A stretch of DNA of 43,035 nt from a virus (IMGVR_UViG_2541047789_000007:1-43035); one strand, 5' to 3'; positions 14,916 through 15,509 are shown, counted from the stretch's first letter. The notes: generated from the sequence alone by a model not told the origin. Numbers and translations: made by a program.

Positions 14916-15325
14916 TCTTTCCAGACAAACAAACAAGGTACTAACAAAATTAGGTTGTAACACGGCGTATGGCACATGCGTCGTTAGCGGTCTGGGGACG
15001 TTAAAGGGGACAATCCACTCCTTGCTCGGGCAAACAAACCAGGTAGCCGGAATGTGCAAGTCAATGATGATGCTGATAAGACGCCTAACCAGCGTGGCGA
15101 TTCGGTTTGACGCCTGGGAAGAGACCAGGGTGCAACGATGAGGGCATTTATGGAGCCGCGACAAAGTGTGGTGCCGTAACTGGCTAAGTGCTCTCAGCGT
15201 TGTGGTAATCCGCGAAATGGCGCGGCGGTAAGTATGGCGGGGTTACTCTTTCCCCGTTGAGGGCACCGGATTGTCAGGTTGACCATACGCCTGAGTGACA
15301 ACCCCACCACAACAGCCACTGCTTT

Positions 15326-15372
15326 GGCGGTACCAGTTTGTACCCTTGCTTCCGGCTGGTACCGCTCTTTTT
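15326..15372 (+). terminator. Hairpin terminator within early-left leader
   Basis: GGCGGTACCAG ... CTGGTACCGC 10-bp stem followed by TCTTTTT. Confidence 0.5.
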
Positions 15373-15509
15373 ACAAAACAGAGAAGAGCATCACCGGACG
15401 ACGGGCTCATAACCCAATCCATCCGGGCGGCAGTCACCGCAGGTGTTCTTCTCTGTTTTGTGGAGAAACCAACCGACCTTGCAGGGTCGATATGATGAGG
15501 AGCAGCAAA

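Follow-up and report, generated by a model that had tools for sequence, protein, structure and literature searches.

The leader between the candidate early-left promoter and the first early-left gene of this prophage is, with a probability that we put at about three in four, a modular non-coding RNA cassette that is neither an N/nut nor a put system, and its core is a predicted small RNA related to DicF and sRNA-17. The homology, the conserved structures, the boundaries in comparison with published RNA ends and the lack of a coding signal are established here. The core can be described as a chimeric newcomer to the DicF/sRNA-17 family. The literature that we searched describes neither modules A and C of the cassette nor its architecture around a tRNA slot, nor how the 5' domain of long DicF is folded.

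The prophage and its structured leader

The window, i.e. the whole stretch of 43,035 nucleotides that was analysed, is a lambdoid prophage of the mEp460/SfV/cdtI/Stx2c-phage type (Table 1). Further left, the minus strand carries a CII-like gene, an O-like replication gene, RusA and the Q antiterminator. A run of 15-nt direct repeats at 12454-12569 (CAGATTTTGACGGGT-like, 4-5 copies), within the O-like gene (11921-12862, minus strand), looks like the iteron array of a phage origin.

Exact TTGC-N7-GCAA sites, of which there are five in the 43 kb, are found at 14863 and 14887 and also in the gap between cI and cro at 14080, and this third site has the same extended sequence as the other two. It is plausible that 14863-14901 is the OL/PL region; it contains a possible -10 (CATAAT, 14890-14895), and a simple promoter scan found no canonical -35/-10 pair at the candidate PL. 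A weak promoter candidate (TTGACA-17-TACCTT) lies upstream of module A in a phiV10-type phage. When the leader was compared with phage genomes by BLAST, a mosaic boundary against phages of other immunity types appeared at about 14943, and since everything beyond it is shared with them, the cassette begins just after the promoter.

Two kinds of published sRNA were considered as identities of the leader element and rejected. The co293-like svsR sits at the cI 3' end in SfV-like prophages (PMC12803456), and the Pas sRNAs lie near structural genes (bioRxiv 10.64898/2026.05.13.724894). In the window, the position equivalent to svsR is about 14760-14850, i.e. the 3' end of cI and its terminator.

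A preliminary description of the sequence had pointed out some 600 bp of GC-rich DNA at 14916-15509 without any convincing ORF, and this was borne out. The GC content is 55-57% across 15000-15450 as against 40-47% in the flanks, and the 621-nt leader folds at -236 kcal/mol (z = -4.5, 20 shuffles). The elements listed in that description are also there: the hairpin CCGCG-aaatgg-CGCGG at 15210-15225, the hairpin CGGGG-ttactcttt-CCCCG at 15238-15256 (one base off the earlier coordinates), the boxA-like GCTCTCA upstream of both at 15190-15196, and the strong hairpin terminator at 15326-15372. All of its hairpins are kept in related sequences, with compensatory changes. The ORFs of the region overlap each other, as had been described, and none among them is N-like or arginine-rich; those of 92 aa (plus strand), 86 aa and 41 aa (both minus strand) have no match in PHROGs, and the first two none in Pfam. 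Spacer lengths among homologues of the leader fall in all three classes modulo 3, and so does the spacer between two invariant blocks of module A, which ranges from 26 to 50 nt. The search against Rfam covariance models that had been suggested assigned no family to modules A, B or C, neither at gathering nor at permissive thresholds, in the window and five related loci. BLAST against phage genomes splits the leader into pieces with differing distributions, the terminator and module C being present also in SfV, SfII and SfIV, and no module has a second copy in the window.

Table 1. Features of the window discussed in the text
Feature	Position	Strand	Details
Q antiterminator	8521-8901	-	left of the cro-like gene
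cro-like gene	13757-14017	-	ORF list, family searches
cI-like repressor gene	14115-14807	+	ORF list, family searches
Intrinsic terminator 3' of the cI-like repressor gene	14828-14845	+	terminator scan
Candidate OL/PL	14863-14901		operator-like sites TTGCATATCTCGCAA and TTGCATAATGCGCAA, exact TTGC-N7-GCAA
Module A	14963-15129	+	conserved structured RNA with pseudoknot, ~170 nt
Module A helix H1	14963-14970/14976-14983	+	
Module A helix H2	14987-14995/15039-15047	+	
Module A invariant block	15042-15060	+	GGTAGCCGGAATGTGCAAG
Module A helix H3	15081-15084/15092-15095	+	
Module A pseudoknot	15087-15090/15104-15107	+	loop to downstream
Module A helix H4	15113-15117/15125-15129	+	
Hairpin H5	15137-15198	+	5' strand GATGAGGGCATT 15137-15148; 3' strand AGTGCTCTCAGC 15187-15198
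Predicted sRNA	15199-15372	+	module B, linker and terminator, 174 nt; predicted positional homologue of sRNA-17 and long DicF
Module B	15199-15313	+	cloverleaf-like domain with pseudoknot, 115 nt
Module B P1	15199-15205/15307-15313	+	7-bp closing stem
Module B P2	15210-15214/15221-15225	+	
Module B pseudoknot	15232-15237/15283-15288	+	junction with loop of third arm
Module B P4	15238-15242/15252-15256	+	
Module B P3	15268-15276/15296-15304	+	
Linker and DicF-type terminator hairpin	15314-15372	+	stem 15326-15336/15356-15366, U-tract to 15372
Module C	15373-15491	+	long irregular hairpin, 25-nt arms 15373-15397/15437-15461; small hairpin 15472-15491
yfdP-like gene	15510-15872	+	first early-left gene, 120 aa
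yfdQ-like gene	15938-16762	+	
yfdR-like gene	16860-17414	+	

Module A, delimited by BLAST at about 14949-15205, was collected in 103 unique variants and occurs in more than 100 phage contigs, Klebsiella, Enterobacter and Salmonella phages included. Its fold consists of four helices and a pseudoknot from a loop to the downstream sequence. Among 38 representatives 97.4% of the cells are paired, compared with 24-44% in slid controls, and 11 pairs have changed on both sides (78 cells, 20 in shuffles). Long blocks that are single-stranded in the fold are invariant, and none of the variants tested was recognised by Rfam. In phiV10/epsilon15-like podoviruses module A adjoins tRNA-Arg, and in P1 it is found between tRNA-Ile and ban, downstream of the terminator and directly ahead of ban. 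In SfV module A is missing, although terminator, module C and yfdP are all there. We regard module A as a structured RNA in its own right that accompanies the cassette.

Within module A, at 14981-15004 (GTTAGCGGTCTGGGGACGTTAA), GTTA occurs twice as a direct repeat with a spacing of 18 bp, which matches the pattern by which Sun et al. searched for ArcA sites, namely two GTTA at a distance of 14-20 bp in the 300 bp ahead of sRNA-17 (PMC7719688). If this is the ArcA site that they predicted, a structured RNA module makes up most of their "promoter" fragment. At about 2690-2790 of the P1 locus, between module A and the ban start codon, we also observed ATTTTCTGGTGATGAC, which resembles the DicF 5' seed UUUCUGGUGACG, a seed complementary to UCACCAG/UCACCAU, the H3 loop of module A.

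The predicted sRNA core

The two hairpins of the preliminary description are two of the three arms of module B. In an alignment (MAFFT) of 54 unique sequences, 94.6% of the fold is paired and 10 pairs have changed on both sides, as against 2.8 in shuffles, and slid controls give 34-57%; these counts support the fold but fall short of proof, as the 54 sequences are closely related. A covariance model, built for module B only, has a single match in the window (152 bits), none in HK022, and scores 166 bits in the Qin prophage of K-12; modules elsewhere were found by pattern scans. The Qin match, with 92.5% identity, is the stretch directly upstream of dicF, between ydfC and dicB, and the Rfam DicF starts 26 nt downstream of it. 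Module B is found in E. coli K-12, in PPompW prophages of O157, and in P1 beside an annotated "dicF-like region", and true copies are, according to the pattern scan, present in genomes of Escherichia, Shigella, Citrobacter, Trabulsiella, Erwinia and Izhakiella as well as in more than 100 viral contigs.

DicF has a 53-nt species and a 190-nt species whose 5' end is RNase III-dependent, according to Faubladier 1990 as cited in 10.1101/2023.04.14.536235, and the enzymes known to process it are RNase III and RNase E. Counted 190 nt back from the DicF terminator, one arrives at the start of module B, and module B is by homology the 5' domain of the 190-nt long DicF. In the Qin locus of K-12 the stretch that follows the DicF terminator and leads to dicB (2690-2858, GTGATGTGGTGAATGCGGCTGAGCGCACGCGG ... 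CACCTGGAGGCACCAGGCACTGCATCACAA) is related by homology to the interior that the cassette has in SfV. Qin thus seems to carry two tandem cassettes, the second of which has no terminator and runs into the dicB ribosome-binding site.

Directly upstream of module B is the hairpin H5, whose two conserved strands enclose a variable tip and which is closed by pairing of AGUGCUCUCAGC with GAUGAGGGCAUU at the end of module A. The boxA-like GCTCTCA lies within its 3' strand. By pair counting in the alignment of 20 distinct variants, H5 is 90.4% paired with 6 of 12 pairs changed on both sides, and slid controls reach 37-54%. A fold-based test with a shuffled 3' strand was non-discriminating (70 of 72 versus 49 of 72), and pair counting was used instead. 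The 5' ends of both sRNA-17 (by RACE) and 190-nt DicF (by RNase III dependence) map immediately 3' of the H5 helix, and H5 is therefore, by analogy, a likely double-strand processing site that sets the 5' end of the sRNA. A pairing between the Qin flanks of module B plus DicF had also been considered as an RNase III site and was dropped, its downstream partner being the start of the second cassette.

The terminator has a perfect stem of 10 bp (GCGGTACCAG at 15327-15336 with CTGGTACCGC at 15356-15365) with a G-U pair at its base, a pyrimidine-rich loop and a tail TCTTTTT that ends at 15372; it escaped the simple terminator scan solely on account of its 19-nt loop. All of the 76 unique sequences downstream of module B have a hairpin followed by a U-run some 50-135 nt past the module B core. 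The base UUGGCGG...CCGCC(C)UUUUU is present in nearly all of them, the 5' linker and the pyrimidine-rich loop are variable, and the stem in phage P1 differs. Canonical DicF and the hairpin of the window are two variants of this type of terminator hairpin. In Erwinia tracheiphila, Trabulsiella, Izhakiella and L078 the terminator hairpin is far longer and encloses AGGAG, which resembles a Shine-Dalgarno sequence, with ATG or GTG 8-12 nt later. The short frames that start there differ in length and phase between the species, and may represent a translated mini-ORF that modulates termination, or chance.

The second published RNA with which the unit agrees is sRNA-17, 193 nt long and mapped by RACE and Northern blot in a mEp460-like prophage of E. 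coli K1 RS218 (Sun et al. 2020, PMC7719688). We placed it via mEp460, where the unit is 194 nt, and via the supplement of that paper. The supplementary alignment begins with GTTGTGG and finishes with the sequence of 15305-15365 of the window (PMC7719688). In the window the unit lies 391 nt past the stop of the repressor gene and 565 nt ahead of the yfdQ start; the corresponding figures are 392 and 565 nt for mEp460, and 392 and 567 nt for RS218 (PMC7719688). The location and the ends of the window unit thus coincide with those of sRNA-17, and identity is confined to the first ~7 nt and the last 68 nt of the 193. Judged from the sequence, the predicted sRNA is a positional homologue of sRNA-17 in which the interior has been exchanged for module B. 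Of the three possibilities raised in the preliminary description it is consequently the prophage small RNA that gained support, with a positional homologue of both sRNA-17 and 190-nt DicF at 15199-15372. Such variants are called "degenerative" copies by PMC7719688, which gives no account of modules or structure.

The genomic position is also of the DicF type: aligned to Qin, the O157 prophage and P1, the window has the upstream domain, the GGCGG/CCGCC terminator and the repressor-controlled operon. The Rfam model of DicF (RF00039, gathering score 48 bits) recognises nothing in the window at that score and nothing in 14750-15600 even at E <= 10, and gives 76.7 bits for dicF of K-12. The sequences by which DicF pairs with xylR, ftsZ and pykA, in its 5' and 3' regions as described in PMC5069750, were not found in the window. 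As the seed and the loop of DicF are missing and Rfam fails to recognise the unit, the targets of the sRNA cannot be inferred from those of DicF. RNAduplex of sRNA variants against the ftsZ translation-initiation region gave only z = -1.2 even for authentic DicF, and we propose no target.

The proposed course of events is as follows. The leader would be transcribed from the repressor-controlled early-left promoter, the 3' end of the sRNA would arise by intrinsic termination at 15372, and its 5' end by cleavage at the foot of H5, in analogy with 190-nt DicF and sRNA-17. The product would consist of module B as a 5' domain, a short variable linker and the terminator hairpin with its GGCGG/CCGCC base, and the variable pyrimidine-rich loop of the hairpin would be the likely base-pairing region, anti-Shine-Dalgarno-like in character. 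What we infer are the enzymes of processing, the position of the seed, the role as attenuator and, as discussed below, the descent from a tRNA. When a resistance cassette replaced sRNA-17, yfdP went up about 96-fold and yfdR went up too (PMC7719688). By analogy, the terminator would most likely attenuate transcription into yfdP-yfdQ-yfdR of the window as well, but the rise of yfdP could instead be due to the inserted cassette, e.g. to a promoter of its own, rather than to loss of the terminator. sRNA-17 was detected in an uninduced lysogen (PMC7719688), so repressor control may be incomplete, or another promoter may exist.

The tRNA slot and other readings of the leader

In phiV10-type phages and in Klebsiella (ST512) phages a leader AGTGCTCTCAGCGTTGTGG is followed by tRNA-Arg, a linker hairpin AATCACGNCTNAGGACCGTGAT and a terminator of the same type, and in Trabulsiella it is module B that lies between the leader AGTGCTCTCAGCGTTGTGG and the linker AATCACGNCTNAGGACCGTGAT. 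In epsilon15-like phages tRNA-Arg thus takes the slot of module B between the same flanks. The frame GUUGUGG...CCACAAC holds other interiors in Tyrion, mEp460 and SfV. The variant in Enterobacter phage Tyrion (locus 1665-1790) has a longer interior, with approximately 200 nt extra before the shared linker hairpin and terminator; further along that locus, at 2598-2662, there is an Rfam match to int-alpA RNA (44 bits, above the gathering score), which is unrelated to the leader. In the window itself ARAGORN finds no tRNA and Rfam gives no tRNA match at E <= 10. Module B has the flanks of a tRNA locus (leader, acceptor-stem ends and trailer), and it has weak echoes of a tRNA inside, namely an acceptor-like 7-bp stem, a D-arm-like hairpin with a UGG loop and a T-arm-like CAGGUU. 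These flanks and the weak interior resemblance make us believe, with moderate confidence, that a tRNA-Arg gene followed by a trailer sRNA was the ancestor of the family. The frame GUUGUGG...CCACAAC with its linker and terminator accommodates module B, the interior of sRNA-17, the third interior of SfV or tRNA-Arg, and the family would thus behave like a tRNA locus that has kept its 3'-trailer sRNA while other inserts took the place of the tRNA.

Antitermination is the other function that a structured RNA behind PL brings to mind, and the preliminary description had named both an HK022 put-like RNA and a nut region with a missing N gene. Membership in the put family failed, as the leader has no similarity to putL and a different architecture, and occurs as a single copy with none after PR. 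We had located putL on the minus strand of HK022 from published residue identities (A3-G7/C15-U19 duplex, U28 and G35; PMC9378689), and blastn of the leader against HK022 27600-33000 gave only chance matches of 10-21 nt (E at least 0.13). A 9-nt match between putL and module B (GCGCGGCGG, window 15220-15228) was set aside as probably due to chance, the structural contexts in these GC-rich RNAs being different: the 5' strand of put stem II in one, the 3' strand of P2 and the junction in the other. The blocks that are invariant in modules A and B are present only once in the window, even with up to 3 mismatches allowed, and the leader and the PR operon have no repeat in common. It could still be that module A, module B or both act as a protein-independent processive antiterminator, in the manner of put or Bacillus EAR though unrelated to them, altering RNA polymerase in such a way that it passes the sRNA terminator and reaches yfdPQR. 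We consider this unlikely, even if several features agree with it: the phage is lambdoid and has a Q antiterminator but no N-like gene, a strong terminator stands between the early-left promoter and the first gene, and module B is always directly upstream of such a terminator. Moreover, module A is promoter-proximal in the window and, from alignment of upstream sequences, apparently so in some other phages, its invariant single-stranded blocks suggest a binding partner, and in epsilon15-like phages there are genes on the same strand after the terminator. All of this has to be set against the missing likeness to putL, the single copy and the lack of one in the PR operon, and against the plain tRNA that replaces module B in epsilon15-like phages. 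The published sRNA-17 and 190-nt DicF end at the terminator, which argues that termination is efficient. Furthermore, SfV has the same terminator, module C and yfdP yet no module A, and in P1 module A sits past the terminator, directly before ban, so module A is unneeded for whatever read-through occurs. A far-reaching and rather improbable conclusion would be that module A, by itself or in combination with the P1-framed cassette, acts in cis to render the E. coli RNA polymerase termination-resistant and, next to HK022 put and Bacillus EAR, forms a third class of such RNAs that is unrelated to these two. If true, it would explain gene expression behind strong sRNA or tRNA terminators in N-less lambdoid, P1-like and epsilon15-like phages. 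A less radical reading is that enterobacterial phages have in common a modular "tRNA-slot plus trailer-sRNA" cassette, a conserved scaffold that presents fast-changing pyrimidine-rich loops, of which DicF and sRNA-17 would be two members in one family.

A nut-type site, with GCTCTCA as boxA and a boxB-like hairpin, which either an N-like protein that escaped recognition or the Nus factors by themselves would use, is very improbable. The boxA of lambda is GCUCUUA, one base off GCUCUCA, some homologues read UGCUCUUUCC, which is near the rrn boxA, and a 5-bp hairpin follows 14 nt downstream. But the motif forms the 3' side of a helix of 12 bp in which compensatory changes occur, and in Qin-type and other members it reads GUGCGCUUCC with the opposite strand changed to match; being a strand of the covarying H5 argues against a single-stranded NusB/NusE site. 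The hairpin after the motif is one arm of the larger covarying fold of module B, there is no second site downstream of PR, and a search of all ORFs of at least 30 aa, with PHROGs and Pfam applied to those of the leader, yielded nothing arginine-rich or N-like. That part of the leader encodes a small protein, e.g. the 49-66-aa ORF at 15295/15346-15495 annotated in some phage records, is likewise quite improbable. The 66-aa ORF at 15295-15495 matches PHROG 33599 (E = 6e-18), which is unannotated, hypothetical proteins are annotated here in phiSTEC1575-Stx2k and, under the match to 15325-15520, in some RefSeq genomes such as CFT073, and the Erwinia, Trabulsiella and Izhakiella variants have a Shine-Dalgarno-like sequence and an ATG within the terminator loop. 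In the window, however, the only starts are GTG and TTG in the terminator hairpin without a Shine-Dalgarno sequence, Pfam gives no match, and homologues have indels of 1, 2, 22, 25 and 33 nt that break the frame, which stops after 36 codons in Erwinia and 21 in Izhakiella. The conservation of 15295-15495 instead tracks two hairpin arms with compensatory changes.

These arms belong to module C, which is kept in Escherichia, Citrobacter, Erwinia, Izhakiella and metagenomic relatives with apical insertions of 22-33 nt, and in which A-U to C-G and G-C to A-U exchanges, judged by eye to be compensatory, are seen in the arms. Its small hairpin is directly upstream of the yfdP ribosome-binding site, and module C as a double-stranded RNA would probably govern the processing or translation of yfdP.

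The preferred reading, a modular cassette with an sRNA core, links DicF, known from cell division and metabolism, with sRNA-17, known from blood survival of E. coli K1, which have until now been studied separately, and unites them in a single modular family that would go back to a tRNA-Arg locus. It also turns the unexplained 5' part of long DicF into a conserved pseudoknotted domain. Modules A and C are widespread in phages of Escherichia, Salmonella, Klebsiella, Enterobacter, Citrobacter and Erwinia, and because they are absent from Rfam they are left unannotated or are mis-annotated as hypothetical proteins. The question that it raises is how N-less phages transcribe past the sRNA terminator to yfdPQR.

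Comparison with known systems

The leader resembles HK022 put in being a structured RNA after PL of a lambdoid phage without N, upstream of a terminator. It differs in that put is about 70 nt long, with two stems in a V and a triplex, and has copies after both PL and PR, whereas the window has one pseudoknotted cloverleaf of 115 nt, besides it module A with its roughly 170 nt, and no copy after PR. The terminator read-through that put brings about needs no protein factors and depends on the beta' zinc-binding domain. The lambda N leader has an RNase III-sensitive hairpin, and module C likewise is a predicted long double-stranded hairpin between the PL-proximal RNA elements and the ribosome-binding site of the first early-left gene, but it has no sequence relation to the lambda hairpin.

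3'ETS-leuZ of E. coli is an sRNA made from the 3' trailer of a tRNA. The linker and terminator hairpin of the epsilon15-like phages are such a trailer, of tRNA-Arg, and module B lies in the exact place of the tRNA; module B is on the other hand undetectable as a tRNA, and the enzymes of DicF are RNase III and RNase E.

With sRNA-17 the unit has in common the position, the GUUGUGG start, the final 68 nt including the terminator, module A and H5 upstream, and module C and yfdP downstream. They differ in length (174 versus 193 nt) and in the interior of about 110 nt, which is GUGAAUGCGCAGGC... in sRNA-17 and module B in the window. As to DicF, its 5' seed UUUCUGGUGACG is absent from the window, the loop sequence is different, and the genes downstream are yfdPQR instead of the dicB of Qin. 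Module B, in contrast, matches the 5' part of long DicF with 92.5% identity, the base UUUGGCGGUA...CCGCC-UUUUU recurs in the terminator hairpin, and both RNAs precede protein genes in an early prophage operon under repressor control.
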